From Candidatus Nanoarchaeia archaeon (lineage in GTDB: Archaea > Nanobdellota > Nanobdellia > Woesearchaeales > GW2011-AR9), in NCBI GenBank assembly GCA_035289385.1, contig DATDXI010000012.1, forward strand, positions 9,871 to 73,870: 64,000 nt of DNA, given 5' to 3'. Shown here piece by piece: positions 34,522-48,991 of the stretch. The first letter of the stretch is position 1. Each line of letters opens with the position of its first letter. The position numbers and the translations under genes were made by a program. The notes beneath the pieces were generated by a model. That model saw only the letters and a list, made by a program, of their open reading frames with translations, searched no databases and was not told where the DNA came from.

Positions 34522-35430
34522 TTACTCTATCAGTTTTTCTTTCACAAAAAGAATATTTGTAATCCCCGAGCGCTCTATTTTTTTTGTTTTTTCTCTCAGA
34601 GGATGAAAACCATGCCCCTTCAAGAAGGAAAACACCTGAGGCGCTTCATTCTTACTGGTCTCACAATAGACATATGTAGCTTCCACAAGAGCCTTTTCCA
34701 TACCTTGCAATACCGCCAATTCATGACCTTCAACATCTATCTTGATGAAATCAACTTTCCCAAGATGAAGATCGTCAAATCTTCTCAGCGGAACATCCAT
34801 CGTGGAATCAATCTTTGTCTTGATGCGATCCATAAACCCCTTGCTCAGCGAATGCCCGCCATCATTCTCTTTACTGAGGTATATCGTCTCCGCCCCTTCT
34901 TTGTTGGACAGGGCATAAGGAAATAATGTTATATTTTTCTTGGTAGGGTTCTGCTGAAGATTCAATTGAAAATTATCGACAGTTACCGGCTCAAATGCCA
35001 AAACTCTTTTAGCATAACAAGCAGCGATCAGCGATGTCTGACCGATATTTGCGCCAACATCAACATATACACTCTCTCTTCCCAGACGTTCTTTTAAGAT
35101 TGCTGCCAACGTGTCAGGATTATTCAGATAAAAACGCCTTCTGCTGACATAGCTTCTCAAGTTCAGCCGGAGGATATACTCATTCTTCTCATCCAGCCTA
35201 AATTCCTGATCAACAAATATATCCTCAGGATGGTTGCTGAGGAGACCATCAAAAAAAGCAAAAAACATAGCACGAAGAAAGATAGGGTTTATCTGCCGAT
35301 AGTTCTTCAGGGAAATGATAGGGATAACATGATGAGGGATGACGTGATAAATGGCAGATCCTAATTTTCGGAAAAGAAAGATCCCGACGTTCTTCACTTT
35401 TCGAAGGAAAAAGCTATTCATGATATCCAT
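34522..35430 (-). CDS. FkbM-family methyltransferase
   Basis: VYVDVGANIGQTSLIAA, AFEP, FIKIDVEGHELAVLQG. Confidence 0.75.
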   Translation of the reverse strand: MDIMNSFFLRKVKNVGIFLFRKLGSAIYHVIPHHVIPIISLKNYRQINPIFLRAMFFAFFDGLLSNHPEDIFVDQEFRLDEKNEYILRLNLRSYVSRRRFYLNNPDTLAAILKERLGRESVYVDVGANIGQTSLIAACYAKRVLAFEPVTVDNFQLNLQQNPTKKNITLFPYALSNKEGAETIYLSKENDGGHSLSKGFMDRIKTKIDSTMDVPLRRFDDLHLGKVDFIKIDVEGHELAVLQGMEKALVEATYVYCETSKNEAPQVFSFLKGHGFHPLREKTKKIERSGITNILFVKEKLIE

Positions 35431-35433
35431 ATT

Positions 35434-35463
35434 CTTACCTACTTACCTACTTACCTACTTGCC
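35434..35463. repeat. 8-bp tandem repeat CTTACCTA, 3.6 copies, immediately upstream of the FkbM start codon
   Basis: Read directly. The minus strand reads GGCAAGTAGGTAAGTAGGTAAGTAGGTAAGAAT-ATG. Confidence 0.9.
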
Positions 35464-35572
35464 ATAATCCAAATGAGATACATTTTATCTAAAAGAGATT
35501 CATGGTATCTCAAAGAGATCTGTGCTATCCCACAGAGACCCATCAGTTTATAAGGATTGAGGAAGCATGCTC

Positions 35573-36601
35573 TTAGGGTTTATGCTCATGAGGAAGGCTG
35601 TGTTCCTTCTCGATCCTCCCATCTCCTCTGCTGGCATCATCTTCATGCCGTACAACATCATCAACCTCTGGCGTCGAGCATTCGATGATAATCGAATCTT
35701 CTAAAGCGATGGTTCGATGCCTTTTCGGAGGGATGATCTCCCATAGGCCACCTTCTTCGACAACCTTCTTCTCAATTTCACCATAAGCATTTTCATACCA
35801 TGCTTCCACTCTCCCCTTGACTAAAAAATTGATCTCTCGTTTCTTCTCATGATGTTGGAAGCTCATCTTCGTCCCTTTCTTCACATATAATTTCTTGAAC
35901 ACGTAGGGCTTTTCCTCAGCGCCAACTTCTTCTCCAAAGCGATAATTCAGCCAAACTTCACCGACGCTTTCAATTCCGTTGAATGTCGCATTGCCCCAGG
36001 GTTTTGTGACAAATTTCGCGCCATCTTTCTCGTAATAGAGCCAGTTTCTGCCATTATTCACCACTCTGCCCTTATCTTCTAATCTGAACCGGACGAGAGG
36101 AATCAGCTCACGGACACTCAAACCGGAAGGATATCTTAGTGCAGCCCATTTTTCTTTTAGCGAAGCATCTCTGCCTTTTTTATCATAAATCCTCTTAATA
36201 TCTTCTTCATCATAGAACCCATGGCTGATCTCGATAAAGGTAGACCCACCCTCCAATGAAATATTCACTGGAGCATGAACCATCCCCATAGGAATTACAA
36301 CCTTATCCCCAGGTTGCATAACCACCGCATGGAGATTTGCTATTGTTTTTTCAGGGTCATTTGGATAGTAAGTCCCACGATAAACCACCATACTTCCAGA
36401 GACTAAAACATACTCTTCTGTCCGATGACTATGGACCTGTACAGAAGGTTCATCAATGATATGATGGATCCTAGTATTAGAATCAAGAATGGCGGATGCT
36501 CCCCATGCCCGTTCTACTTCATGGTAAGGAGCCCCTTCAACCAGCGCTTGCTTTGTGGTTATACGATGAAAAAAATAATTTTCTTTACGGTCGTTATTCA
36601 T
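35573..36601 (-). CDS. Bicupin protein; the second cupin resembles the type II phosphomannose isomerase C-terminal domain
   Basis: Cupin 1: VQVHSHRTEEYVLVSG...PMGMVHAP. Cupin 2: SFQHHEKKREINFLVKG...PPKRHRTIAL...IIECSTPEVDDVVRHED. Confidence 0.6.
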   Translation of the reverse strand: MNNDRKENYFFHRITTKQALVEGAPYHEVERAWGASAILDSNTRIHHIIDEPSVQVHSHRTEEYVLVSGSMVVYRGTYYPNDPEKTIANLHAVVMQPGDKVVIPMGMVHAPVNISLEGGSTFIEISHGFYDEEDIKRIYDKKGRDASLKEKWAALRYPSGLSVRELIPLVRFRLEDKGRVVNNGRNWLYYEKDGAKFVTKPWGNATFNGIESVGEVWLNYRFGEEVGAEEKPYVFKKLYVKKGTKMSFQHHEKKREINFLVKGRVEAWYENAYGEIEKKVVEEGGLWEIIPPKRHRTIALEDSIIIECSTPEVDDVVRHEDDASRGDGRIEKEHSLPHEHKP

Positions 36602-36709
36602 ATTATTCCTCCACTAAACCAATTTCACTCCATAAAACCATTTGCATCATGCCAATATCACTACTTACCATCATAACTCACAAGCATAACTCACAATAAC
36701 TATTCACCA

Positions 36710-37489
36710 TCACAACCCGCCACTCACTTTAATCGTTTCTCCCGTCATATAATTGCACTTGTCGCTGGCCAAAAATAAGATAACTTCAGCGATCTCTTCA
36801 GGACGAGCCATCCTCTTTAATGGGATCTGGTCAATCTGCTTTCGTATCCTATCCGTAAGCGTCTTCTCCGTCATCGTCGTATCGGTAAATCCTGGCGCAA
36901 CCGCATTCACCAAAATGTGAGGAGCAAATTCTTTTGCCATATTTGACGTCAAGCTCATGATAGCTGCCTTAGAAGCAGCATAAGCTGTACTGCCAGGAAT
37001 ATGAAGATACCCTTTTATAGAAGCGATATTGATGATCTTACCCTGCCTATTCCTTATCATTTGAGGAAGGACTGCTTTAGAAAAATTCACCGTGCCAAGG
37101 ACATTCACGTCAAATGTTTCTTTCCAGCTCTCCGTTGTCTGCTCCAAGAATGGCTTTGATAGATTGACTCCTGCAGAATTGACGAGAACATCAATTTCAC
37201 CGAGAGCTTCAACTGCTTTCTTCACTTGAAGCTCATCTGAAACATCACAGGAGATATATTCAGCCCCTATTTCAGAAGCAAGATTGACCAATTCTGCTGA
37301 CTGAGTTTTACCATGGAGAATTACTTTAGCGCCATAAGCAGCAGCAAGCTTTGCTATGGAAGCTCCTATCCCTCGAGAAGAGCCGGTGATAAGGATTGTT
37401 TTACCGCCCAATGGGCTTTTACCACTTAATGGACTCTTACCACCTAATAGACTTTTACCGCTGAGGAGATCAGTAGCTGTAATGGTCAA
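36710..37489 (-). CDS. SDR-family oxidoreductase (FabG-like)
   Basis: KTILITGSSRGIGASIAKLAA, YAASKAAIMSLT. The N-terminal LSGKSLLGGKSPLSGKSPLGGK is encoded by an 18-bp tandem repeat (37399-37465). The gene overlaps the upstream gene by 20 nt. Confidence 0.8.
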   Translation of the reverse strand: MTITATDLLSGKSLLGGKSPLSGKSPLGGKTILITGSSRGIGASIAKLAAAYGAKVILHGKTQSAELVNLASEIGAEYISCDVSDELQVKKAVEALGEIDVLVNSAGVNLSKPFLEQTTESWKETFDVNVLGTVNFSKAVLPQMIRNRQGKIINIASIKGYLHIPGSTAYAASKAAIMSLTSNMAKEFAPHILVNAVAPGFTDTTMTEKTLTDRIRKQIDQIPLKRMARPEEIAEVILFLASDKCNYMTGETIKVSGGL

Positions 37490-38483
37490 TCACCTCCATG
37501 ATCTGATTGATGATGACCTCTCGGATATCTTCCCTCTTCTCCAATTCAGACATCATTGTTTTAAAGCGAGGCGATGAAAAGAGATAATGTCCGGCAATGC
37601 AAGCGCAAAGGAATTTGTTTTCTGCAGTATTATCCTGCAGCCATTTCTTCCATTTGCCGCTCTGATACACTTCATCGATAAAATCACCGAAGGGAATGCC
37701 ATACATCAGGCATTTATTCAGCACCAGCATGGTTTGGACAACACCTAGCTGAGGAGCGATATTCATCGCATCGACGATGCCTTGCCGCGCCAGTATCTCG
37801 TCTTTAGAAAGATAATCTGCATTATGCTCCTTTAACTTAAGGCCCTTTCTCTGTAATAATTCATGAACTTTAGCAATGAATCCGGGATTGAAATTTCCCG
37901 CCTGATTGATCTCTTTCACTAAGCTTCCTGTCTGCACGACATAAAATAGAGGGTTGCAGAATTCTTTAAAGAAATCGATCTCTTCCTCTAGCTCATGCAG
38001 GTTCGCTAGGCTAAAGTTTGTCCCTTCATTCTCATCCGTCCCTATCTCCAGCTCCAGGTTAGGATTTAATTCCAGACAAAGCTCGATCGCTTTTTTAGAC
38101 GCAGCAAAGCGCTCCCCTTTGCTTCCTTGAAAATGGCAGAAATCTATGTGGATGAGGTCAAAGCCATGCTTAACATCTGAACGGATGGACTCATACGTAT
38201 CATCCAGGTTAAAATTACCATTAAATCCCGGGCCACAATGGTCGCGGCAGATCTTCACGCTGCTGTGAGGATAGGTGCTCCTCATCTTTCTGATAAAGTC
38301 CATGAACTGCTTTGTCGTCCAGTTGTTGACATAACCACCCTTATGGTCCACTTGATTCTTAGAAGGGATGAGCATGAGGGGCCTTCTCTGATAATGCGAT
38401 ACGCGGAATACTGCCTCAACGATCTCCTCACTCATCGGGCCTATCCCTAACTCCAGGTCATATTTTCTAAGCGTAGTCTCCAT
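37470..38483 (-). CDS. GatZ/KbaZ-like TIM-barrel protein (tagatose-bisphosphate aldolase accessory / ketose-6-phosphate 4-epimerase family), short form
   Basis: Collinear with E. coli GatZ strings: SKNQVDHKGGYVNNWTTKQFMDFI (vs [23 protein letters not shown]), CRDHCGPGF (vs GGDHLGPN), GFDLIHIDFC (vs GFSKIHLDAS), LEIGTDE (vs VIGTEV). Confidence 0.5.
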   Translation of the reverse strand: METTLRKYDLELGIGPMSEEIVEAVFRVSHYQRRPLMLIPSKNQVDHKGGYVNNWTTKQFMDFIRKMRSTYPHSSVKICRDHCGPGFNGNFNLDDTYESIRSDVKHGFDLIHIDFCHFQGSKGERFAASKKAIELCLELNPNLELEIGTDENEGTNFSLANLHELEEEIDFFKEFCNPLFYVVQTGSLVKEINQAGNFNPGFIAKVHELLQRKGLKLKEHNADYLSKDEILARQGIVDAMNIAPQLGVVQTMLVLNKCLMYGIPFGDFIDEVYQSGKWKKWLQDNTAENKFLCACIAGHYLFSSPRFKTMMSELEKREDIREVIINQIMEVIDHYSY

Positions 38484-40065
38484 TTTCCATCAGTGCCTTG
38501 TATAACATGAGTTTTCCCATGTAGTAGATCAGAAGGTCAAAAGGATCATGGTGCAGCGGCGACATATTAAGGTAAATTAAAGCACGGAGAATCTTTATCT
38601 TGCGAAGATCAAACTTGTTCCTGGACAAGAACGACTCATATTCCTCTTTTGCATCTAAGAGGTCATTCTTGATGGCAAAATTATAATAAACGCTGGTACC
38701 GCTCATGTCAAAGGTAAATTTTCCTTCTTTGATAAGCTTGTAGGATATCGTCAATCCTCCATAAAGCTTGGCAAGGTCATAATACAGGTCTCCGAACTTG
38801 GTCATGCCACCAAAATCCTGCCTCCAGTCCAGGAGGATAAACTTTTGGAGATTGCTGCTGGGATCTCTGGTGACTAGAATATTGTCAAACTGCAGGTCGC
38901 CGTGGAAATTTGAGGGAATACCATTGTTGATCTCCTCCCAATTGATCTTCGCAAGCAGCTCTTTCAGCGCCGGTACTCTGACCCCGTTGATGATGTTGGG
39001 AGTATCTTCAAGACCTTTCTTGTCATAGAACATCTCTACCCGCTGGATGGTTTTCTCTTGGTAGAATCTTTTACATGCTTGTGAAAACTCTTTCTTCTCT
39101 TCATCAGAGAGATCTATTTTTTTCCAAAGCTCAAATTTTATCCACTGAAGAAAATCATGGACTATTTGAGTGTTCAGGACATCATAAAGCACCTGGCCAT
39201 CTATCCTTTTATAAGAATAAAAATTGTCTTTGCGCTTTTCTATCTCTGGACAGAGGCCTTTCAGATGAAGAGCCCTTTCACAGCGCTTTGAAGCGATGTC
39301 TTGGTCGGCAAAAAATTTTACTACCCTCCCATTGACAAAATAGATGAACTCATCGCCTTTGCTGAAATCGAACGCAGCAGTACTGCCGGAAAAATTCTTA
39401 TTGGTCTCTATGTAATTATCCAGTGTTCCTGTATCAAACCAAGTGAATCCTACCGGAATGAGCTTATTCTCAATCAATCCCCTAAAGCCATTTGATACCT
39501 GCACTTCACCGCTCTTGATCTCTTTATTCTTCTCCAGTGAGGCAAAGAATGTCTCATGATCATAGATTCCAGCAAGGCCCAAAAATGCAAACTTATTGTC
39601 CGTCTTGATCTTGTCATCGAGCTGAAAAACTAAATTATTTTTGATCTTGACTGTACAGTAATCTTCCGTTTTCTTCACAGGCGCGATGCCAAACCAGTTC
39701 TTGTCAGGGACAGGGATATCTTCCAGGATGAGCGTGTCAGCTACACACAGGACAAAGGGACACTGAAGATGCTCCTTGCACTGAAGGAGAGAATGCCCCG
39801 GCCCTGCTCCTGGGCCCATATACTCATCGATAGCAACGAAGGTAAATTTTCTTTCGGGATGAGCTAGGGAGAGATAATTTATCACCGTTTCTTTCTTATG
39901 TCCTACGGCTATGACCATTTCCACTTCCTTAGGAAATTTTTCAACATGATAAGATATCGCTGCCTTAAAGTTGACGGGGAGGATAGAAGTGTTGATATGT
40001 TTGGAAAGGGCACCCATCCGGTTTCCTACACCTGCCGCTAGAATACATACTTTATAATTGTCCAT
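38467..40065 (-). CDS. Bifunctional nucleotidyltransferase (LicC/MurU-like) fused to an APH-fold kinase (AmgK/choline-kinase-like)
   Basis: N-terminus: YKVCILAAGVGNRMG...ILPV. C-terminus: Brenner motif HGDLQFDNILV and LLDWRQDFGG. The start at 40065 was chosen by alignment with the paralog at 41762-42466; the ORF opens at 40095. The gene overlaps the downstream gene by 17 nt. Confidence 0.7.
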   Translation of the reverse strand: MDNYKVCILAAGVGNRMGALSKHINTSILPVNFKAAISYHVEKFPKEVEMVIAVGHKKETVINYLSLAHPERKFTFVAIDEYMGPGAGPGHSLLQCKEHLQCPFVLCVADTLILEDIPVPDKNWFGIAPVKKTEDYCTVKIKNNLVFQLDDKIKTDNKFAFLGLAGIYDHETFFASLEKNKEIKSGEVQVSNGFRGLIENKLIPVGFTWFDTGTLDNYIETNKNFSGSTAAFDFSKGDEFIYFVNGRVVKFFADQDIASKRCERALHLKGLCPEIEKRKDNFYSYKRIDGQVLYDVLNTQIVHDFLQWIKFELWKKIDLSDEEKKEFSQACKRFYQEKTIQRVEMFYDKKGLEDTPNIINGVRVPALKELLAKINWEEINNGIPSNFHGDLQFDNILVTRDPSSNLQKFILLDWRQDFGGMTKFGDLYYDLAKLYGGLTISYKLIKEGKFTFDMSGTSVYYNFAIKNDLLDAKEEYESFLSRNKFDLRKIKILRALIYLNMSPLHHDPFDLLIYYMGKLMLYKALMENGDYA

Positions 40066-40411
40066 CCTCTTCACACGTCCATGCCTTTTAGCCATTCATG
40101 CTGGTAGCATCATGCTTATAGCGCCATATTAATAGCACTTATAGCATCATGTTGATAGCACCTTTTCGGCTTCACACGAACAGGAATGAACTTTAAATTT
40201 CTCTTTATAAATATTATGAACGAGGAGATTAGGAGAGACAGAACTCCAGAAATATCCCCTATTTTCCACTTCTTAGATTATTTCACAAAATATGAGGTTG
40301 TACCACAATATTTAATAATGCCCACCAATATTATCGCACTAGTGATTCCATTTAAATTATTGATAATCAAGACATTGATGATCAAGATATTGATGATGAA
40401 AATAGAAAGAG

Positions 40412-40882
40412 GTGTTGGAAACGGAAACTAAGATCTCAGCGGAGGCATATGTTCTTGCTCCAGACCAGGATACCAGGGTGGAGCTGAGTTGGGAAAAAGT
40501 AAGGGACGAAATTGTTGCATTGGCAGCAAAGATAGATTATTCTCCAGACATCATCATAGGTATAGCCAGAGGAGGGATGGTCCCTTCTATCTTGCTTTCC
40601 CAGCAATTGAACATAGAGAATATCCATGCCCTTAAAGTGGTCAAGCACGGCACGAGAAGAGAGGTCATCGCAGAGGTCTTCACTGACGTTTCAGGGAAGA
40701 ACGTTCTTGTCGTTGACGACATGCTTGAGACAGGCAATGGCATGAAAGAAGTTAAAAAGTTTCTTGAAGCAAAAGGCGCAGATGTCAGGACAGCCTGCCT
40801 GTATGTCATGCCTCACACAGAGTTCAATCCAGATTATTCCCTGCAGGGCATGACAAAAGTCATCAAGTTCCCCTGGGACTGA
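40412..40882 (+). CDS. Type I phosphoribosyltransferase (purine PRTase-like)
   Basis: DIIIGIARGGMVPS and the PRPP motif VLVVDDMLETGNGM. GTG/TTG start; the exact start is uncertain. Confidence 0.65.
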   Translation: MLETETKISAEAYVLAPDQDTRVELSWEKVRDEIVALAAKIDYSPDIIIGIARGGMVPSILLSQQLNIENIHALKVVKHGTRREVIAEVFTDVSGKNVLVVDDMLETGNGMKEVKKFLEAKGADVRTACLYVMPHTEFNPDYSLQGMTKVIKFPWD

Positions 40883-40904
40883 TGTTTATCATGGTATTAG
40901 GGAA

Positions 40905-41576
40905 TTATTTTGTTACCATTCTAGATGATTGACCTGCACTAATAGGTATCATCATTTCTCTGGCATATTCCACCAAATCAAGAGGTACATCTGGCTGCTC
41001 AACACACCAGCCTTTCTCTGACCAGTCAGCTATCTTTACCAACTCCGTCATAGCTTCCATTTGATCTCTTGGTCTCGTCGGATCAAAGATATAATTTGTT
41101 CCTGTTCTCCTGTACTCTGCTGTAAACTGTTTTTCTGCCGCTTTAAGAAGATGGACCGCATGAACTCTTCTCATCTGGGTTGGATGAATAATTATCGTCA
41201 AATGGCTATGAGATAGCTCGTGGTGAACGATAGTATCTATCCCCAATGCTGAATTCTCTGCTCCATTCCTCGCTTCTGCTTCGACATAAATATGATTCTG
41301 AGGGACTCCATGAACAATATTCAGGAGTAATGCCTGCCATTTTGCTTCCGGAACCTTTAGATCACCCAAATAACCTGAATCTTTGCCTAATCCCCCAGTA
41401 AACAGAACATATCCCACTAGTTGGGAATGGTACAGCTCTGCTGCTCGTTCCGCAACGAGAGGATCATCTCGGCAGAAGACGAAAGCTCCATCTGACCTTT
41501 CAAGAGGATGCGTCGGATTATAGAGATAATCAAATATGTCTCTTATTTTCTGCGGCTCAACAGGCATTTTATTCAT
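40905..41576 (-). CDS. DUF218 (YdcF/ElyC/SanA-like) domain protein
   Basis: VLFTGGLGKDSG and GVPQNHIYVEAEARNGAENS resemble DUF218 core motifs. Confidence 0.45.
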   Translation of the reverse strand: MNKMPVEPQKIRDIFDYLYNPTHPLERSDGAFVFCRDDPLVAERAAELYHSQLVGYVLFTGGLGKDSGYLGDLKVPEAKWQALLLNIVHGVPQNHIYVEAEARNGAENSALGIDTIVHHELSHSHLTIIIHPTQMRRVHAVHLLKAAEKQFTAEYRRTGTNYIFDPTRPRDQMEAMTELVKIADWSEKGWCVEQPDVPLDLVEYAREMMIPISAGQSSRMVTK

Positions 41577-41605
41577 CAGTTCTACTCCATATTTTTACGA
41601 GTAAA

Positions 41606-41724
41606 GAAATTCCTAAAAATTGCTACCCCGCAGCAAGCTACGGGGCATTACGCAATTTTTCGAGACGGAATTTCTAACTCCACGTTGGGTTACGCAGCAA
41701 GCTGTGGGGTATGAACCCCAACGT
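41606..41724. other. Two adjacent extended hairpins, each carrying a copy of the 17-nt box CGCAGCAAGCT(A/G)(C/T)GGGG; candidate small RNA or regulatory/terminator element
   Basis: Hairpin I (41606-41674) is built from GAAATTCC/GGAATTTC, AAAAATTGC/GCAATTTTT and CCCCG/CGGGG. Hairpin II (41682-41724) pairs ACGTTGGG with CCCAACGT. The box copies lie at 41629-41645 and 41693-41709 (period 64), and each contains the dyad GCAGC-AA-GCTG. Confidence 0.35.
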
Positions 41725-41761
41725 TGGAATCAGTTTTAGTCACTATTTTTACTCTTCAGAT

Positions 41762-42466
41762 CTATCCCCCTTGATACGAAATCCCATCAGGATAATTTTG
41801 AACAGCATGCTGATACGAGCTCTTCGTTCCCGTATCGAACCAGCTGAACTTCTGGATCTCCATGCCCTTCTTGATCAGCGCTTGAAATCCATTCGACACT
41901 TGGATTTCTCCACCTATCACCGTCTTGTTCTGTTCCAGATTGCTCCAGAAAGTTGAATGATCATAAACACCGGCAAGACCGATAAAAGCAAATCTGTTGT
42001 CGCACTTCACTTTATCATCTATGCGGATAACTTTGCCATTTTTTTCTTTCACCGAACAGAATCTGGAGGTATCAGGAACTTCCGCCACGCCAAACCAATT
42101 GGCAGTTGGAGCAGGAACAACTTCCTTTACAAGAGTATCAGCTGAAAAAAAGATGAATGGGCATTGCAGCTTATCCTTGCAGCAGAGCAGGGAATATCCT
42201 GGGCCAGTTCCTTCCCCCTCAAACTTATCTACATGGACAAATTCCAAGGACCTGGTAGGATAATTGACGGTAAGATAATCTATCACCGTCTCTTTCTTGT
42301 AGCCTACGGCTATCACTATCAGAACATTTTCAGGAAATTTCTCGATGATGTGGCAGATAGCAGGCTTACCATGGACAGGGATGAGCGCTTTATTGAACGT
42401 CTTGGTGAAATAGCTCATCCTAACCCCTAATCCTGCAGTCAAGATGCATACTTTATATTTTTCCAT
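41762..42466 (-). CDS. Stand-alone nucleotidyltransferase, paralog of the N-terminal domain of the gene at 38467-40065
   Basis: MEKYKVCILTAGLGVRMS...ALIPVHGKPAI...IAVGYKKETVIDYL...GTGPGYSLLCCKDKLQCPFIFFSADTLV is nearly collinear with the fused paralog. Confidence 0.75.
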   Translation of the reverse strand: MEKYKVCILTAGLGVRMSYFTKTFNKALIPVHGKPAICHIIEKFPENVLIVIAVGYKKETVIDYLTVNYPTRSLEFVHVDKFEGEGTGPGYSLLCCKDKLQCPFIFFSADTLVKEVVPAPTANWFGVAEVPDTSRFCSVKEKNGKVIRIDDKVKCDNRFAFIGLAGVYDHSTFWSNLEQNKTVIGGEIQVSNGFQALIKKGMEIQKFSWFDTGTKSSYQHAVQNYPDGISYQGG

Positions 42467-42575
42467 GATAATATCCTCCTCTATCAGTATTATCTTTCTA
42501 TCTCTATCAGTATAATCTTCCTATCTCTCTCAAATAATCATTTCTTGAAGTTTATTTCTTGAAGTTTACTAGTTA

Positions 42576-42938
42576 TCATTGTTTAAATGCTTTTATGCTT
42601 TTGATCTTCCCTTGTAGAGAAAATTCCAATATGTCTATTACTCTTATTTTTTCTTTGCCATTGATCGTTATCAATAAATCACCGATAATCACATTTCCAT
42701 CCTGATATATATTTAATGGCTCAACAAATATCCTCTCTACCGACTCAAATATTGCCTTGACTGCTTCTATGATGTTATCCTTCTCTTGAATATTATTCTC
42801 CCAATCAATAAGTAAGGCTTTAGAATCAAGCATATCGCTGATTTTATCACTATTTTTATCTGAAAATAGTTGAAAATACTCCCTGGCAGCTCCTTTAAAA
42901 TCCTTTTTTACTTTCTTTAAATCTCTTCCTGCTTCCAT
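42576..42938 (-). CDS. Small NTF2/SnoaL-like fold protein (tentative)
   Basis: About 120 aa with a pattern compatible with an NTF2-like cone. No catalytic motif was recognised. The ATG at 42938 is preferred over the GTG at 42944. Confidence 0.3.
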   Translation of the reverse strand: MEAGRDLKKVKKDFKGAAREYFQLFSDKNSDKISDMLDSKALLIDWENNIQEKDNIIEAVKAIFESVERIFVEPLNIYQDGNVIIGDLLITINGKEKIRVIDILEFSLQGKIKSIKAFKQ

Positions 42939-43146
42939 GTTCACGTTACAGCATCAACAGCAAAAAAGACTTATAATGCTTATGGAATATAGTGCTTAGG
43001 GAGTATAAGGCTTATGGGGGATAGTGCTTATGGAAGAGGAGAGGTGGTATCATTAGAGTGAATACATCAGTGGAAAGCTCTGCTTCTGATGGTAAACCCC
43101 GCAATCTCATCTAAAAGAGCTAATAGAACAACAACTGAAATAAAAA

Positions 43147-44706
43147 TTAACATTCCGGCAGCATTATTTTCTCATTCCGCAACTTGGCAAAATCAAATTT
43201 CTCCCAGCGCAGAGCCATCAATCGCTCAAATAATTCCTGATTAGCCTCATAATCCACTTCACATCTCTTGATCTGCGGATAATATTCCTCTGGCAACGCT
43301 ACATACAGCATGAATACTCTCCAGAGATTCTTGATCTCTTCCGCGCTAAGATATGGTGGAGGCATCTCTAACAAGGATTCCTGAGTAAAGGTGACCATCG
43401 GCTTGTCTGGAGAAAGAAATCCCTTCTCAATGCATAACTTTGTCAATTCCTGCCCCGGCTGCGGCTGGAAGATAGATACGGAACAGACAGAAGGCTTGAT
43501 CCTCCGGCATAAGTCGACCGTCATGAAATAATCTTCCCGCGTCTCGTACGGCAAACCCATCATACAGAATGCGTTGCAGCGGATATCATATTTATGCAGC
43601 AGGTCAAACGCAGTGATCACCTGTTCAGCCTTACACTCTCTGTTGCATACCTGAAGGATCTTCTCTGAACCGGACTCCACACCTATGCTTACTTGGAAAG
43701 GGATATTATATTGTACGATCTCCCGCAGCTTTTCATCACTCACTGTTTCAGCTCTTGTCTGGAAGATGAAGGGCTTCCCGATCTCTGCGGCATAGCGTTT
43801 CATGAAATCTCTTAGCCAAGAAAAAGGATGAGATAGAAAACATTCATCAGTAAATTGGAAAATATCTATCTTATGGTCATCGACCATCATCTTCATATGC
43901 TCCATGCAAGAATCCAACGGTCTCTTGATCAGGAACTTGGTCAATGGCTCTGGCTCTTCACCACCTTGAGTATAAATCTTCTTCAGGGCAGTATTTCCGC
44001 AGTAGGAGCAGCTGAACGGGCATCCCCTCGCCACTTCCATATCATATCTCCTTATCATCTTCCCATCGAATGGGCGCACAAAATAAGCATCATCAAAGAA
44101 CGAGAAATCCTGTTTGACGTCCCAAAGCTCTTCCGCAGAAGCCAGGCGCCGCCGTGGATTCGTCTTTACCGTCTTGCTCTGCCGGTCATAAAAATATGTC
44201 CCTCTGATCTCCGTAAGTTTTTCACCATTCTCGATCTTATCTAAGAGTTCTTTGAATGTCAACTCCCCTTGGCCTATAGCGACGAGATCAAACAGCCCAG
44301 ATTCAGCAACCTCCATAGGAGATAACGTCGAATGAATACCTCCGATGATGACTGTCGTATCTTTAGGAATCTTCACCTTGTGGAAGAACGTTAACAGAAA
44401 TTGGTATTCATAAGACATCGCATTGATGACGATAAGATCAGGATGGAAGCTGTCAATTCTTTCTTGAAGATCCGGAACTATCCTTTCTTTAGGTATTTTC
44501 CCGTCAGCGAAGAACATAAACCCTTTCTTGAATCCACCTGCCTTCTCTTTCTCTGTCGATGAATCCATGCCGGTCTCATGCTTATAAGTATCAAAGTACT
44601 CTGCCTTCCAACCCTTATGGCGGGCAATTCCTGCTAATGATGGAATGACCGTGCTGATGGCCGCCCAATTTGCAGAGTTTGGAAAAAAAAACAACACCTT
44701 TTTCAT
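43147..44706 (-). CDS. B12-binding-domain radical SAM enzyme (class B)
   Basis: The N-terminus is flavodoxin-like and B12-binding-like (KKVLFFFPN...). The radical SAM cluster motif is ARGCPFSCSYCGN (CxxxCxxC). The start is leaderless, 26 nt from the TATA box at 44730-44738. Confidence 0.8.
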   Translation of the reverse strand: MKKVLFFFPNSANWAAISTVIPSLAGIARHKGWKAEYFDTYKHETGMDSSTEKEKAGGFKKGFMFFADGKIPKERIVPDLQERIDSFHPDLIVINAMSYEYQFLLTFFHKVKIPKDTTVIIGGIHSTLSPMEVAESGLFDLVAIGQGELTFKELLDKIENGEKLTEIRGTYFYDRQSKTVKTNPRRRLASAEELWDVKQDFSFFDDAYFVRPFDGKMIRRYDMEVARGCPFSCSYCGNTALKKIYTQGGEEPEPLTKFLIKRPLDSCMEHMKMMVDDHKIDIFQFTDECFLSHPFSWLRDFMKRYAAEIGKPFIFQTRAETVSDEKLREIVQYNIPFQVSIGVESGSEKILQVCNRECKAEQVITAFDLLHKYDIRCNAFCMMGLPYETREDYFMTVDLCRRIKPSVCSVSIFQPQPGQELTKLCIEKGFLSPDKPMVTFTQESLLEMPPPYLSAEEIKNLWRVFMLYVALPEEYYPQIKRCEVDYEANQELFERLMALRWEKFDFAKLRNEKIMLPEC

Positions 44707-44729
44707 AGGGTAATGGGGGAGAGATATAC

Positions 44730-44738
44730 TTTATAAAA
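44730..44738 (-). promoter_or_regulatory. TATA box for the leaderless radical SAM gene
   Basis: TTTATAAAA, with the centre about 27 nt upstream of the ATG at 44706. Confidence 0.45.
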
Positions 44739-44761
44739 TTATCGCTGCTCTAACGAAAGGC

Positions 44762-44769
44762 TTTTATAT
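44762..44769 (+). promoter_or_regulatory. TATA box for the leaderless gene at 44791
   Basis: TTTTATAT, with the centre 26 nt upstream of the ATG at 44791. Confidence 0.45.
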
Positions 44770-44790
44770 CATAACCCTGCTCTGGATAGG

Positions 44791-45135
44791 ATGGCAACAA
44801 TCAAAGGGAAATGGTGGAATATCGACATGCCCGATGAAGTCAATCTTATTGTTTCCAAAAAACATGCCTGGAAACAGGATCCAACAGGGTATTTCCTGAT
44901 CCGCATCAACAAAGAAAAGCAGGAGATCGAAGCAGCCTTCTGCGGCAACAACCATAAGATCCAGAAAATAATCGTCGGCAAACACCCGGAAGAGATCTAT
45001 TACACCATGATCCGCGAGGGGCTCATTTCACTTTTGGAACATGCCGCTAATATGGGTAGTGAACTTCAGAAAGCATACTTGGCCATGAAAAATGATCTGA
45101 ACTATGTCCAGGATGATGATCTTATTCTCAAATAA
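44791..45135 (+). CDS. Small conserved-looking protein, possibly DUF4346-like
   Basis: QDPTGYFLIRI ... LLEHAANMGSELQKAYLAM recalls DUF4346-type proteins. This is a recollection only. Confidence 0.3.
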   Translation: MATIKGKWWNIDMPDEVNLIVSKKHAWKQDPTGYFLIRINKEKQEIEAAFCGNNHKIQKIIVGKHPEEIYYTMIREGLISLLEHAANMGSELQKAYLAMKNDLNYVQDDDLILK

Positions 45136-45196
45136 AGTATGATTCTTCCTCAAAGAAAGGCGATACGCATTAATAGTTTTATTATCATAAAGAATG

Positions 45197-46003
45197 TCAC
45201 ATCCCCTGATACCCTAAATAATATTTCTTTGTAAGCTCCAAGAGCTGTCGGTGGTTTTCTTGATTGTTTGAAGCGATGACAACTACAGAATCTGAAGTTA
45301 CCGCATTTCCCAGATAGTCAGTAACAACCCCTCCTGCTTCTTTGACCAGAACAGCGCCTGCCATAAAGTCATAGGAATGAACGGCATCAGAGATAGAGCA
45401 GACAAACTGTCCGGAAGCCACACCAGACAGCTGCAGAACGTTGCTGCCAATAGCACGGATTGTTGCACCACAGCTCAGCAATTCTTCCTGCGTCTTTATT
45501 TTTCGCAATGCCCGGTCGTCCCGAAACGATCCATCTAAAACAACGATACCCTTTGCCAGCGACAGGCTGTTCACCTTTATTTTTGTTCCATTGCAGAAAG
45601 CCCCATTTCCCTTTTCAGCCCAAAATAATTGATTAGTGAAAGGGTTATAAATGACACCAAGCACTGCTTCTCCACCCATCTCCACGCCAATCGATATGCC
45701 GCATATTGGAATTTTATTTTTGAAATTCGTTGTCCCATCTAAAGGATCAACATGCCATCGTATTTTCCCGATACCTGTAGTTCCCGTCTCTTCACCGACG
45801 AAAACGTGGCTTGGAAAGCGCTTCATCACAAGCTCCTTGATCGCCTGTTCTGCCTCTTTATCGGCGATACTGACAACAGTTTTATCTGCCTTTAGCGCAA
45901 AAGAAACATCTCCGCCAAAATACTTCAGAATAATTTCACCAGCTTTTTTTGCTGCTTCTTGAGCAGTAGATAGCATAGTGGTAGGTAGCGTAGTATCCAT
46001 CAT
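45197..46003 (-). CDS. Inositol monophosphatase / fructose-1,6-bisphosphatase family protein
   Basis: FVGEETG and WHVDPLDGTTNF are canonical IMPase metal-binding motifs. Confidence 0.8.
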   Translation of the reverse strand: MMDTTLPTTMLSTAQEAAKKAGEIILKYFGGDVSFALKADKTVVSIADKEAEQAIKELVMKRFPSHVFVGEETGTTGIGKIRWHVDPLDGTTNFKNKIPICGISIGVEMGGEAVLGVIYNPFTNQLFWAEKGNGAFCNGTKIKVNSLSLAKGIVVLDGSFRDDRALRKIKTQEELLSCGATIRAIGSNVLQLSGVASGQFVCSISDAVHSYDFMAGAVLVKEAGGVVTDYLGNAVTSDSVVVIASNNQENHRQLLELTKKYYLGYQGM

Positions 46004-46100
46004 CCTGCCTCATCTGCTTTTACTTTCACTTTTGCTTCAGCTGTTGCTTCAGTTGTTGTTTTAGCTTTTACTTTAGCTGTTGACGGTGAAAAAAGTATTT

Positions 46101-47072
46101 TCATTGTCGAAATTCCACTGCCTTGCTTAAGATCTCTTCGAGACGTTCAAGGTTATCCCCATTATTAGCAGCAATGACCATATCAGCAGCTTCAATGTCA
46201 TGGCAATCGACAACTTCAGTGTCATGATTGAACATCTGCCCGGAATCTAACTTCCTGTTCCCAGTGGTGGGATTAGTTTCAATGTTGTAGCATCTTGCCA
46301 CTCCCCCAGCTTCAACGACATGCAATAAGCCAATGACATCAAACGGTCCACCGATTGCCGTAGTGATATTTCCCACAAGAGTAGGTCGTCCTGTTGCAGA
46401 CAATGCAAAATGGCCGCCGTTAGTATAAAATGTTGATTCTTTTGCTCCTGCAGCTTCAATGCCGCTGCTTAATGCTCTTCTTCCGTCAGCATAAAGAACT
46501 GACCGCTTCCCCTTTTCCCGAGCAAAAGCATGATTGACATCGACTAAAACAGCTCCTTTCTGTAAGCCTTGTTGATTGACATGAAGGAGTAGACCATCTT
46601 CCGATAGCCATTGACCTGACTCATAATCAAACCTATTTAGCCAGGCACCATCTCTTTTGGCAGAGAACCAAAATCTTCCCGTTGTTGGTTCCATCGTAGC
46701 AGCTGCGAGAACTTGTTTTGCTCCGGAGTCATATGCCCCCAGAATAACCGTCGGTGTTGGACCACCGATCAAGAATCCTCCTGTGCCATCAAGTGGATCA
46801 AAGTAGACTTTAATGCTTGATCTCAAACTACCACTATCAGCAGAAGCTTCTTCAGAATTAATCCGATATCTTCCTAACCCTTTCTGAATAATTGGAAGAG
46901 CTCTCTCCTGACTTCCTGTATCCACGACGGTGACTGCTGTCTTGTCTCCTTTAAGGTGATACTCTGTTAAATCAACTTCTCCTAAAATCGCCTCTCTGAT
47001 ATAAGCTGATGAAGCGACTAACGCTTCCTTTGCCGTCTCTCGAAATGCATACGCATCAAATAGTTGTGCCAT
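46101..47072 (-). CDS. Divergent IMPase/FBPase-superfamily phosphatase
   Basis: YFDPLDGTGGF plus upstream acidic motifs (INSEE). The protein is longer and more divergent than the neighbouring paralog. Confidence 0.5.
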   Translation of the reverse strand: MAQLFDAYAFRETAKEALVASSAYIREAILGEVDLTEYHLKGDKTAVTVVDTGSQERALPIIQKGLGRYRINSEEASADSGSLRSSIKVYFDPLDGTGGFLIGGPTPTVILGAYDSGAKQVLAAATMEPTTGRFWFSAKRDGAWLNRFDYESGQWLSEDGLLLHVNQQGLQKGAVLVDVNHAFAREKGKRSVLYADGRRALSSGIEAAGAKESTFYTNGGHFALSATGRPTLVGNITTAIGGPFDVIGLLHVVEAGGVARCYNIETNPTTGNRKLDSGQMFNHDTEVVDCHDIEAADMVIAANNGDNLERLEEILSKAVEFRQ

Positions 47073-47156
47073 AATATTCCCTCCATAAAGTATTTATTTT
47101 ATGTATGTTTTTAGTTTTTTAATCTTCAATTACATCTATACTTCTAATTACACTTA

Positions 47157-47828
47157 CTATTTCCTTCCCACTATTGCAACAATCTCTTGGAGATTATGGA
47201 CGGTGTAATCCACTTCTCCTGCCTTTGGAACAACATTCTTGCCTCTCCCCCAAGGCACCCAGATCGTTGTCATCCCCAGCGCCTTTGCCGGCAATAAGTC
47301 CGTCTTATACCTATCACCGACAACAAAACAATCTTGAGGCAAAAATTTCAAGCCTTCCATGATCTCTTGATAAGGTTTCGTCTTATCATAATCTTCAACT
47401 ACCAATATCTTTTGAAAGAGCTTCTTATCGATGCCCGCCCGTTTCAGCTTCTCCATCTGGCCATCAGCATTTCCTTTGGTGACAAGACCAAAGGCAACCC
47501 CCAGAGCCCTAGCTTTCTGCAGCAATTCCATCACTCCAGGAAGAGGCTTGATGGAATACTCAAAATTAAAGTTATAAAATCCTTTTTTTCCTGCTTCCAG
47601 ATATGAAGCATCAGCATTGATCTCTTTTAAGAAAGTGGTGATAGCATCCGTGCCATCTTTTGCACCTTCATTGATTTCTGCCAATCTCTTTGCCGCTTTC
47701 TCAAATGATAGTACTTTCAACCCCGCCTTGACCATCTCCTCTACTGCCTGATTGGTCAATTGAGGAAACATCGAGCCCCACGTATCTACTAAGCAATCAT
47801 CAAGATCAAAAATAATCAGCTTTCCCAT
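47157..47828 (-). CDS. HAD-superfamily phosphatase
   Basis: Motif I: KLIIFDLDDCLVDTW. Motif IV: VVGDRYKTD. The start at 47828 excludes the repeat-encoded VNYKVNYKVNY extension. Confidence 0.7.
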   Translation of the reverse strand: MGKLIIFDLDDCLVDTWGSMFPQLTNQAVEEMVKAGLKVLSFEKAAKRLAEINEGAKDGTDAITTFLKEINADASYLEAGKKGFYNFNFEYSIKPLPGVMELLQKARALGVAFGLVTKGNADGQMEKLKRAGIDKKLFQKILVVEDYDKTKPYQEIMEGLKFLPQDCFVVGDRYKTDLLPAKALGMTTIWVPWGRGKNVVPKAGEVDYTVHNLQEIVAIVGRK

Positions 47829-47864
47829 ATAATTTACCTTATAATTTACCTTATAATTTACCCT
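47829..47864. repeat. 12-bp tandem repeat ATAATTTACCTT x3 immediately upstream of the HAD start codon
   Basis: Read directly: units at 47829-47840, 47841-47852 and 47853-47864 (the last with one mismatch). Confidence 0.9.
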
Positions 47865-47875
47865 GTCATACCCTA

Positions 47876-48991
47876 TCATATCTCGCAAAAAAGATGCTTA
47901 TAAAGTTTCTGTAACTGAGATTTTAACTCAAAGTTCTTTTCAACTCTTTCCCGTCCAGCCTTTCCCATAGACCCTACCCACTCTGGATTTTCCAAAAAGC
48001 GCTTGATTGCATAAACTATGGCAGCAACATCTTTTTCAGGAACAAGAAACCCCGTTTTTCCATCATCAACCATCTCCGGAATCCCCCATACACTGCTAGC
48101 AATGACGGGTTTGCCGCAAGCCATCGCTTCCAGAAGAGCATTAGGAAATGATTCTGCGCTGTTTCTAAGAGAAGGAAGAACGATGATGTCATGCTGATGA
48201 ATGATCTTTGGCAGTTCTTCCTGAGGGATTCGGCCAATAAAATGAATATAATTATTTTTTGTAAAGTATTTGTTCTTATAATACGATACCAACGGACCAT
48301 CCCCAACGACGGTTAACGATACCAAACCATCAAACAAAGAATCAGAGAATGAATGAACTGCTTCAAAGAGATAATCCAGACCTTTTTCCTTCCAAATTCT
48401 CCCTACAAACAATAGTTGAAGTGGTCGCCCTACTTCTTTCTTTTGAAGAGAGAACTTTTGAGGAGAGAAGAATTGAGTGTCAACACCATTATAGACAACT
48501 TCCCAAGGATGAGAGTATTGTTTCTGGACTATCGCCTGAGAATTATACACTACTTTATCACAGCTTCGAATGACTACAGGCTTTGAAAAAGTGACTACAA
48601 ACGATTTAAGAAGAGCAGAGAGAGAGTGAAGGTCATACTTCCAGGGGCTTCCACAGCGAAAAACAAGCCGTGATTTCCCTTTGATAAACGTGCCAAATAA
48701 TCCACCAACAAAAAAATCATTGATGTAGATGATCTTTGCTTCACCTATTCTTCGACGAAACTTCCACCAATCCAGAATATTTCCACTGTAATAAGTGATA
48801 TTCCCCTCTTTCTTCTGAAAAGGCTTGCCCCAGCAGAAGACGGTGATAGAACGGAATTTTTCAGACAAGAGCTGCAGGATGGGCTTGTGAATGGAATTAT
48901 GAAGAGTTTCCAAGCTAGAAAGGCTGATGAAGAGAAGATCAACAGGGATCTTTCCTTCATTTTCTTCATTCTCTTTAGTTATTTGGTTCAT
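47876..48991 (-). CDS. GT4 (GT-B, group 1) glycosyltransferase
   Basis: ESFPNALLEAMACGKPVIASSVWGIPEMVDDGKTGFLV (E-x7-E region). An SD-like AGGAG lies 8 nt upstream of the ATG, so this gene is leadered. Confidence 0.8.
   Translation of the reverse strand: MNQITKENEENEGKIPVDLLFISLSSLETLHNSIHKPILQLLSEKFRSITVFCWGKPFQKKEGNITYYSGNILDWWKFRRRIGEAKIIYINDFFVGGLFGTFIKGKSRLVFRCGSPWKYDLHSLSALLKSFVVTFSKPVVIRSCDKVVYNSQAIVQKQYSHPWEVVYNGVDTQFFSPQKFSLQKKEVGRPLQLLFVGRIWKEKGLDYLFEAVHSFSDSLFDGLVSLTVVGDGPLVSYYKNKYFTKNNYIHFIGRIPQEELPKIIHQHDIIVLPSLRNSAESFPNALLEAMACGKPVIASSVWGIPEMVDDGKTGFLVPEKDVAAIVYAIKRFLENPEWVGSMGKAGRERVEKNFELKSQLQKLYKHLFCEI

Follow-up and report, generated by a model that had tools for sequence, protein, structure and literature searches.

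A 64,000-nt stretch of DNA from Candidatus Nanoarchaeia archaeon (GCA_035289385.1, contig DATDXI010000012.1, positions 9,871-73,870 of the forward strand), hereafter called the window, was analysed with a focus on a run of minus-strand genes found at 34.5-49 kb in the list of its open reading frames (ORFs). We lean, if only slightly, toward regarding this block as one lineage's form of a conserved cassette that has spread by lateral transfer and supplies a rare, nucleotide-activated sugar for surface-glycan synthesis. The two central proteins are a fusion of a nucleotidyltransferase (NTase) with an APH-like kinase, designated NTkin, and a protein related to GatZ/KbaZ. The ORF list confirmed the minus-strand positions of the genes listed in an initial annotation of this DNA, as well as the overlaps of 17 nt between the NTkin and GatZ-like genes (38467-38483) and of 20 nt between the GatZ-like gene and that of a short-chain dehydrogenase/reductase (SDR) (37470-37489). 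Support was likewise found for the view taken there that the block leads to a nucleotide-activated compound used in a surface glycan. The domain assignments of the block genes were backed by Pfam and NCBIfam, with the exception of the APH-like kinase.

Relatives of the GatZ-like protein (337 aa; 37470-38483, minus strand; Pfam PF08013) numbered 1,851, the best 120 of which showed 63-81% identity, and at least 1,897 homologues of NTkin (38467-40095, minus strand; NTase part assigned by Pfam and NCBIfam) were found, amounting to approximately 1,900 cluster representatives at 60-80% identity for each central protein. Their sources included Woesearchaeota, Pacearchaeota, Nanoarchaeota, Diapherotrites/Iainarchaeota and many Patescibacteria, and further from Bdellovibrionales, SAR86, Pelagibacteraceae, Omnitrophota, Planctomycetota, Spirochaetota and Archangium, the named sources of the GatZ-like relatives all being metagenome-assembled genomes (MAGs) or single-cell genomes. 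The high identity across two domains of life indicated lateral spread under strong constraint. Apart from some NTkin members named 'choline kinase' by JGI, the relatives of the central proteins carried no names beyond 'NTP transferase domain-containing' and 'tagatose-bisphosphate aldolase non-catalytic subunit', and a full-text literature search found no paper combining the cassette components; for heptose and nucleotide sugars in DPANN and Patescibacteria, the literature listed was confined to papers on general genomics.

For 81 independent loci from many phyla, every ORF up to 6 kb away from the GatZ-like gene was included in a clustering, and the following counts refer to these loci. The GatZ-like gene is the signature of the cassette. 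The core of the cassette consisted of a KdsC-like phosphatase, a reductase (AroE-like or SDR), NTkin, the GatZ-like protein and a PMI-like cupin. NTkin was located directly upstream of the GatZ-like gene in 69 loci and a small PMI-like cupin downstream of it in 57, while a KdsC-like HAD phosphatase of 167 aa was present in 55. Additional members were a second, stand-alone NTase (NT2; 25 loci), a TylC3-like C-methyltransferase with PF08484 above the cutoff (24 loci) and a DUF218 protein (9 loci). The junction between NTkin and the GatZ-like gene was overlapping or no longer than 20 nt in 56 of 58 scorable pairs, and the same applied to 32 of 33 pairs of the GatZ-like gene and the cupin, 30 of which had overlapping genes. 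No transporter was conserved in the cassette across the 81 loci. The three overlapping genes highlighted in the initial annotation thus recurred in part: the pair of NTkin and the GatZ-like gene, together with the cupin, was conserved elsewhere, but the SDR proved to be one of two alternative reductases: 22 loci had an SDR, 26 had an AroE-like dehydrogenase, and no locus had the two side by side. The nearest relative contig (L085, 81% identity) was syntenic with the whole block of the window, including the genes for the HAD phosphatase, a divergent IMPase-like protein 2 (IMP2) and the GT4 glycosyltransferase.

NTkin comprises an N-terminal NTase domain of the sugar-1-phosphate type (approximately 39385-40056), while its C-terminal 300 or so residues are assigned to an APH-like kinase domain (approximately 38470-39384); the two are joined in one protein of 532-542 aa in the manner of HldE. 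Its likely start is at 40065 (Met11), as proposed initially, which fits the N-terminus of the family better than the longest ORF (40095); the family consensus starts just ahead of YKVCIL, and residues 1-10 of the structural model were disordered, with a predicted local distance difference test score (pLDDT) below 50. The AlphaFold2 model of NTkin (pLDDT 91) gave GalU, RmlA and MurU as the top Foldseek matches, the MurU structures 4y7v and 4y7u showing template modelling (TM) scores of 0.75-0.77, target-normalised. Profile matches of the NTase domain were LicC, RmlA-like proteins and GalU. The RmlA-like structure 3hl3 spanned residues 4-228, and LicC was the best PDB sequence match but covered the N-terminal 110 residues only. 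On the basis of the model, the NTase domain is predicted to be of the sugar-1-phosphate type. The APH-like kinase is the weakest of the domain assignments in the block. The putative kinase domain contained the motifs HGDLQFDN, LLDWRQDF and GDLYYDLAKL, including a Brenner-type HGDxxxxN and DW, and such motifs are typical of the APH/choline-kinase fold. Pfam APH matched 11 of 12 members of the NTkin family, all below the cutoff (best E 2e-4), and the 50 matches listed by Foldseek for the whole NTkin model were all NTases.

NTkin of the window has Thr36 in place of the catalytic Lys of the family (NKAxLPV), and its NTase domain is probably impaired by this substitution. NT2 (41762-42466, minus strand; Pfam and NCBIfam), which is 51-57% identical to the NTase domains of NTkin proteins, retains the canonical Lys (NKALIPV). 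When 61 fusion proteins were compared, a second NTase was encoded nearby for 16 of the 17 lacking the Lys and for 9 of the 44 keeping it (Fisher p = 1.4e-7), and the sole Lys-lacking NTkin with no second NTase was at a contig end. As the loss of the Lys tracked with the second NTase, NT2 would serve as a functional back-up or replacement, and it is probably the active nucleotidyltransferase in the window.

NT2 homologues were themselves fused to phosphatases of three unrelated types. In L054 and L017, NT2 carries at its N-terminus a homologue (46-48% identity) of the HAD_2-type phosphatase of the window (47157-47888, minus strand; Pfam HAD_2 2.7e-21); in L048 and L024 its fusion partner is the KdsC-like phosphatase, and in L021 it is a homologue (54% identity) of IMPase-family phosphatase 1 (IMPase1; 45197-46003, minus strand; Pfam Inositol_P 1.4e-57, with DPLDGT and YD..AG motifs). 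IMP2 (46101-47072, minus strand; Pfam Inositol_P 4.1e-12) was found in 13 loci, mostly adjoining NT2. Because the kinase is fused to an NTase and NT2 to three unrelated phosphatases, the kinase, phosphatase and NTase were considered to catalyse consecutive or near-consecutive steps; phosphatase genes are part of the cassette core, and it is their substrate and step position that we infer. The HAD enzyme is a candidate for the sugar-bisphosphate (terminal phosphate) phosphatase. These fusions in other genomes substantiated the earlier assignment of the IMPase-family and HAD phosphatases to the pathway. A function of the NT2-fused phosphatases as pyrophosphatases was rejected, since three unrelated families, including an IMPase, are used.

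The GatZ-like protein matched PF08013 at 32.1 bits (cutoff 26.7) over residues 19-115 only, corresponding to model positions 24-125 of 420, and was scored at 18-29 bits by the NCBIfam GatZ/KbaZ equivalogs, the cutoffs of which exceed 560. Its sequence match to GatZ/KbaZ structures was likewise restricted to residues 21-123. The AlphaFold2 model, built on an alignment of 23 relatives (pLDDT 85), was a (beta/alpha)8 barrel whose best Foldseek matches were 3txv and 2fiq (E 2.6e-13 to 6e-12, TM 0.69-0.76), with class II fructose- and tagatose-bisphosphate aldolases ranking next, so that the GatZ/KbaZ-type TIM barrel supposed in the initial annotation was recovered. D81-H82 aligned with D87-H88 of GatZ. 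D81, H82, E146, D150, E151 and H220 were invariant in the 23 relatives, E146/E151 and H220 being placed at the ends of strands 5 and 7 by strand order, not by superposition. In GatZ, the catalytic Asp and the ligands are D87, H88, E171 and H257, with the Glu and the second His metal ligands at the ends of strands 5 and 7, and Cys20, Glu44 and Lys279 are signature residues (PMC11907403). GatZ and KbaZ act as C4 epimerases of fructose 6-phosphate (F6P) and tagatose 6-phosphate (T6P) via Zn-dependent retro-aldol/aldol chemistry (PMC11907403).

The family shares with GatZ/KbaZ of E. coli and the tagatose-6-phosphate 4-epimerases of Agrobacterium/Sinorhizobium (2fiq, 3txv) the TIM-barrel fold of class II aldolases, the Asp-His motif on strand 3 and, judged by strand order, a conserved Glu and His ending strands 5 and 7. 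In contrast, it is approximately 90 residues shorter (330 versus 420 aa), matches in sequence over the first 100 residues only, and is found in a biosynthetic context, while that of GatZ/KbaZ is catabolic. Glu44 of GatZ aligned with an invariant Ile39, indicating loss of this signature residue, and an invariant Lys42 was gained. By length, the Ile in place of Glu44 and Lys42, the proteins are, as far as sequence tells, a distinct family within the GatZ/KbaZ type. No GatY/KbaY-like partner was present among the annotated genes of the block. The GatZ-like protein is predicted to perform a metal-dependent aldol/retro-aldol step, either C-C formation or C4 epimerisation, on a ketose phosphate. A longer GatZ-like protein (477 aa) was also seen on a plasmid of Streptantibioticus cattleyicolor, in an uninformative context.

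A locus in which the GatZ-like gene is displaced was encountered while tracing the radical SAM enzyme of the block. In this Nanoarchaeota MAG (L086; GCA_042571645.1, 9001-19033), genes for a radical SAM enzyme (59% identity), a methyltransferase, a protein without assignment, an AroE-like dehydrogenase (60% identity to that of the cassette) and a cupin are followed by those for NTkin (45-47% identity), a SIS protein, a split transketolase and a HAD protein, and no GatZ-like gene is present. The best NCBIfam matches of the SIS protein were all GmhA, sedoheptulose-7-phosphate isomerase (E 1e-18 to 1e-20). The pair of transketolase and GmhA-like isomerase fills the slot of the GatZ-like gene, which argues that the GatZ-like protein supplies the sugar-phosphate skeleton by C-C chemistry. 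The displacement also argues that NTkin does for the cassette sugar what HldE does for heptose. A GmhA-like gene stood beside the cassette in L086 only and at a distance in L015, L031, L034 and L060, and the block of the window contained no SIS/GmhA gene, the isomerase of the heptose pathway. When metagenomes were scanned with the NTkin of L086, a single weak fragment was retrieved.

Two further kinds of locus bear on the product. NT2-like NTases were joined with TylC3-like C-methyltransferases in single ORFs of L006 (11381-13273, 630 aa) and L013 (11700-13445, 581 aa), and in L065 NTkin and the GatZ-like gene lay among genes for 4,6-dehydratase-like and RmlD-like proteins, an extended SDR, a split transketolase, a DegT aminotransferase and glycosyltransferases. 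From these fusions and neighbours, the product was concluded to be handled as a nucleoside-diphosphate (NDP)-pyranose. The symbiosis plasmid pSF83666a of Sinorhizobium fredii CCBAU 83666 (L083 12016-15489) carried a GatZ-like gene (33% identity) and its partner cupin (39% identity), followed by a DegT aminotransferase and a HAD_2 (HAD-IA) phosphatase. As the GatZ-like protein and cupin feed a transaminase in S. fredii and a reductase in the window, this module is implied to deliver a carbonyl compound, and the pairing with DegT suggests a ketone. A DeoR regulator gene was alongside the S. fredii module, and nopM and insertion sequence (IS) elements were near it.

The bicupin of the window (35573-36601, minus strand; Pfam PF01050 and Cupin_2) was found to contain the conserved core cupin in its C-terminal part. 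The small cupins of the 57 loci aligned to its residues 185-335 only (approximately 35597-36049), which constitute the PMI-like core cupin, and the N-terminal cupin (approximately 36074-36601) is an accessory one of a type found in L018, L029, L045 and L046. The SDR (36710-37489, minus strand) is a classical one of 259 aa, FabG / glucose-1-dehydrogenase-like (Pfam adh_short_C2 1.9e-60; NCBIfam NF005559 at 217.8 bits, cutoff 215), and was taken to be the ketoreductase of the cassette, swapped elsewhere for the AroE-like dehydrogenase, which exceeds the TIGR00507 cutoff. An 18-bp tandem repeat (37399-37459; 3.4 copies, 81% matches) was seen within the 5' end of the SDR gene, where it encodes GKSxLx hexapeptides directly ahead of the Rossmann GxxxGxG motif. 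The SDR is about 24 residues longer than its L085 orthologue (259 versus 235 aa) because of this repeat.

A pathway can be proposed along these lines. The GatZ-like protein would catalyse a Zn-dependent aldol/retro-aldol reaction on a ketose phosphate, either epimerising it or, like a transaldolase, extending it, and would thereby give the carbon skeleton of a sugar with its terminal carbon phosphorylated. The remaining stereocentres would then be fixed by the PMI-like cupin together with the ketoreductase (SDR in the window, AroE-like elsewhere), through isomerisation/epimerisation and ketoreduction. The APH-like kinase domain would phosphorylate C1, after which the original terminal phosphate would be removed by the HAD or an IMPase-family enzyme, or by the KdsC-like phosphatase elsewhere. 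An NTase, in the window probably NT2, given that the fused NTase has lost the catalytic Lys, would form the NDP-sugar. Tailoring enzymes (the FkbM methyltransferase, possibly the B12 radical SAM enzyme and the extra cupin, and the TylC3-like enzyme elsewhere) and glycosyltransferases would finally use this NDP-sugar.

Several points weigh against this scheme. We infer which substrates are used, in what order the steps run, which nucleotide is attached and what the cupin and the reductase do, and the C1 (anomeric) specificity given to the kinase domain is an assumption modelled on AmgK. When the kinase domain was searched by itself as a profile against PDB sequences, nothing matched, even at E = 10. 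A phosphatase was encoded within 6 kb in only about 55-60 of the 81 loci. The cupin of L086 coexists with a GmhA-like isomerase, so the cupin may be an epimerase rather than an aldose-ketose isomerase; the NTkin of that locus is only 45-47% identical to that of the cassette and could use a different sugar. The analogy with heptose and octose pathways, if it applies, also leaves the role of the reductase unaccounted for.

The logic of the proposed cassette pathway has precedents in the biosynthesis of heptose by GmhA/HldE/GmhB (PMC10948575) and of the lincosamide octose by the transaldolase LmbR, isomerase LmbN, kinase LmbP, phosphatase LmbK and guanylyltransferase LmbO (PMC4351081). In the ADP-/GDP-heptose pathway (GmhA, HldE/HddA, GmhB, HldE/HddC), the order would be the same, from ketose phosphate through aldose omega-phosphate, 1,omega-bisphosphate and 1-phosphate to the NDP-sugar, with kinase and NTase in one polypeptide as in HldE and, in the proposed scheme, a HAD-type phosphatase acting between them. 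However, the cassette uses unrelated folds (an APH-like instead of a ribokinase/GHMP kinase, and an RmlA/GalU-like NTase), its phosphatases are KdsC-like, HAD_2 or IMPase enzymes and not GmhB, and it adds the GatZ-like protein, cupin and ketoreductase, while the window is without GmhA. With the octose pathway the cassette would share a C-C-forming enzyme giving a higher-carbon ketose phosphate, an isomerase, a C1 kinase, a terminal phosphatase and an NTase; nevertheless, no enzyme is homologous, and the cassette is for surface glycans of uncultured archaea and bacteria, whereas the Lmb enzymes are for an antibiotic.

A bolder version of the cassette reading, which we regard as tentative and rather doubtful, is that the GatZ-like protein is a new metal-dependent aldolase or 'class II transaldolase' that uses central metabolites to make a sugar phosphate of seven or eight carbons, or one that is rare in some other way. 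With NTkin and interchangeable phosphatases, it would make up a convergent, pentose-phosphate-independent NDP-heptose-like route. This route would have reached DPANN archaea, Patescibacteria and abundant marine bacteria by horizontal transfer, and its product would decorate their surfaces.

DPANN and candidate phyla radiation (CPR) organisms depend on scavenging, and the cassette might serve salvage only, with a phosphatase freeing an imported or recycled sugar phosphate, the kinase converting the sugar to the 1-phosphate and the NTase activating it; no bisphosphate would be formed, and the GatZ-like protein and cupin would merely interconvert scavenged sugars. This differs from the cassette pathway proposed above only in whether the bisphosphate forms. 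It is modelled on the recycling of N-acetylmuramic acid in Pseudomonas by MupP (HAD), AmgK (APH-fold) and MurU (RmlA-like) (PMC5371407), and MurU was among the best structural matches of NTkin. The two systems would be alike in combining a HAD phosphatase with an anomeric kinase of APH fold and a small RmlA-like NTase, which there convert a sugar 6-phosphate to the NDP-sugar without a mutase. In that system, however, the three proteins are separate and the kinase acts on the free sugar in salvage, while in the cassette the kinase and NTase are fused and accompanied by sugar-building enzymes. Moreover, it is the NTase and not the kinase that has the phosphatase as its fusion partner, which fits a phosphatase acting between the kinase and NTase, and no transporter was conserved in the cassette. 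We therefore consider salvage alone improbable.

The initial annotation had proposed a CDP-hexitol, in which F6P would be converted to T6P, cytidylylated at the 6-phosphate and reduced, or reduced first, to give a teichoic-acid-like phospho-polyol. The epimerase activity of GatZ/KbaZ on F6P/T6P (PMC11907403) speaks for this route, as do the formation of CDP-6-D-glucitol from F6P by an NTase and a reductase in Campylobacter (PMC10918830), the presence of a reductase among the core functions of the cassette, and the DegT enzyme occupying the place of the reductase in S. fredii, an arrangement that would suit the C2 carbonyl of a ketose phosphate as the target. The C. jejuni system (HS5.18 NTase and HS5.17 reductase; PMC10918830) indeed resembles the cassette in combining an NTase with an NAD(P)H reductase in a glycan locus and in starting from a ketose phosphate. 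It has, however, two enzymes with neither kinase nor phosphatase, whereas both of these are core functions of the cassette and fused to NTases; these two kinds of fusion point to relocation of a phosphate to C1, which a hexitol 6-phosphate would not need. The NTase fold is nearest to sugar-1-phosphate NTases (GalU, RmlA, MurU), which does not support a CDP-ketose-6-phosphate or hexitol. The glucitol synthase is an extended, CDP-binding SDR resembling CDP-glucose 4,6-dehydratase (PMC10918830), but the SDR of the window is a 259-aa classical one, and an SDR was found in only 22 of the 81 loci, being interchangeable with the AroE-like enzyme of 26 others. The co-occurrence of NDP-pyranose tailoring enzymes (TylC3-like, 4,6-dehydratase-like and RmlD-like) is a further point against a CDP-hexitol. 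This product, and with it the teichoic-acid-like decoration, was accordingly not supported and is judged unlikely.

In a cyclitol pathway, the GatZ-like protein and cupin would cyclise a sugar phosphate to an inosose phosphate, which the AroE-like enzyme or SDR would reduce or DegT would aminate, and the IMPases, kinase and NTase would lead to a CDP-cyclitol. The AroE family reduces carbocyclic ketones, and the AroE-like gene is above the TIGR00507 cutoff; DegT enzymes include inosose aminotransferases. IMPase-family phosphatases are present, the NTase is weakly similar to inositol-1-phosphate cytidylyltransferase, and the S. fredii module is near moc/iol-like genes. These moc-like genes, however, are on the opposite strand, past an IS element, and we know of no cyclase with the class II aldolase fold. 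The displacement by transketolase and a GmhA-like protein, as well as the NDP-sugar tailoring enzymes, suits an aldose better, and neither the SDR nor the KdsC-like phosphatases gave any cyclitol signal, so that a cyclitol product appeared quite unlikely.

Fusions of LicC and LicA are known, LicC was the best PDB sequence match of the NTase domain and JGI uses the name 'choline kinase', all of which would suit activation of a small amino alcohol or another alcohol (choline- or ethanolamine-like) for a phospho-alcohol decoration, with the sugar enzymes forming a separate pathway, but this was considered very improbable, as the LicC match covers 110 residues while RmlA/GalU-type matches cover the whole domain, and as translational coupling ties the NTkin gene to the GatZ-like gene in 56 of 58 loci, with further links of NTkin to sugar-phosphate phosphatases and NDP-sugar methyltransferases. 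A methionine-salvage/5-deoxyribose shunt (APH-type MtnK, cupin MtnD, HAD MtnC) was rejected on account of the GatZ TIM barrel, which is not the MtnB/FucA fold, and the glycan context, and a fosfomycin/phosphonate-like pathway (NTase and B12 radical SAM) on account of there being no phosphoenolpyruvate mutase among the annotated block genes.

The block of the window also encodes a B12-binding radical SAM enzyme (43147-44706, minus strand), in which PF02310 (33.6 bits) and PF04055 (71.6 bits) were both above the cutoff and the CxxxCxxC motif is present as CPFSCSYC. Judged by these domains and this motif, it is a bona fide class B enzyme. No NCBIfam equivalog reached its cutoff for this protein. 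Homologues were common (180 at E <= 1e-20; 45-59% identity), but close ones accompanied the cassette only in L003, L085 and L086. Others were in unrelated contexts, namely beside pyrimidine genes (L087) and in a nonulosonate/multi-radical-SAM locus (L088). The latter locus, 1-19521 of L088 from an Omnitrophota MAG, contains at least six radical SAM genes, four of them B12-binding, along with NeuB, CMP-sugar synthetase, WbqC and PIG-L, and looks like a heavily modified nonulosonic acid pathway. The initial annotation had the radical SAM enzyme rearranging or C-methylating the product. A class B enzyme is indeed present and C-methylation of the cassette sugar as a tailoring reaction is possible, but the link to the cassette is weak, being seen in three other genomes only; in 24 other loci the TylC3-like C-methyltransferase stands in place of the radical SAM enzyme. 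A PterinBD-DUF4346 gene missed initially (44791-45135, plus strand; 65 bits, cutoff 29.6) and the radical SAM gene point away from each other, and this pairing was retained in L085; its product might provide a pterin-dependent methyl supply for the cobalamin enzyme. The FkbM-family methyltransferase (34522-35430, minus strand; Pfam and TIGR01444), which was found in 5 of the 81 loci plus L065, probably O-methylates the sugar or glycan.

Among the remaining genes, the DUF218 protein (40905-41576, minus strand; Pfam DUF218 31.8 bits), which had escaped the initial annotation, is an accessory cassette member, as its homologues (41-60% identity) adjoined NT2 or NTkin in about 10 loci. A SnoaL/NTF2-like small protein (42576-42944, minus strand; Pfam SnoaL_2 27.1 bits, marginally over the cutoff) was not found in the 81 loci, and L085 had a 120-aa gene at the same place; this gene is local to the lineage of the window. 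A GT4 glycosyltransferase (47876-48991, minus strand; Pfam Glycos_transf_1 7.4e-37) flanks the cassette. A type I phosphoribosyltransferase gene (40412-40882, plus strand), newly listed here, lies inside the cassette between NTkin and DUF218, with a homologue at the equivalent position of L085. A 366-aa protein encoded at 33383-34483 (minus strand) had no family match and carried a Pro/Ala/Ser-rich N-terminal repeat (AATPPAASSS...); its homologues come after the cupin in L003 (74% identity), L024 and L022, and it may be a candidate transferase for the cassette product.

The pathway logic is thus a known one, and what is new is the short GatZ-like family, the convergent HldE-like fusion, the swapping of phosphatases and reductases, and a distribution centred on DPANN and CPR. 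The strong conservation across domains suggests that one surface-sugar chemistry has been under strong selection in organisms that have hardly been studied for their envelopes and many of which live attached to hosts. S. fredii offers a cultured, tractable organism in which the product of the GatZ-like and cupin module can be sought. Solving the cassette would name a new activity in the GatZ/KbaZ superfamily, define a fold-independent analogue of HldE and correct thousands of annotations, and it would identify a glycan component that is a possible marker or host-interaction determinant of ultra-small microbes.

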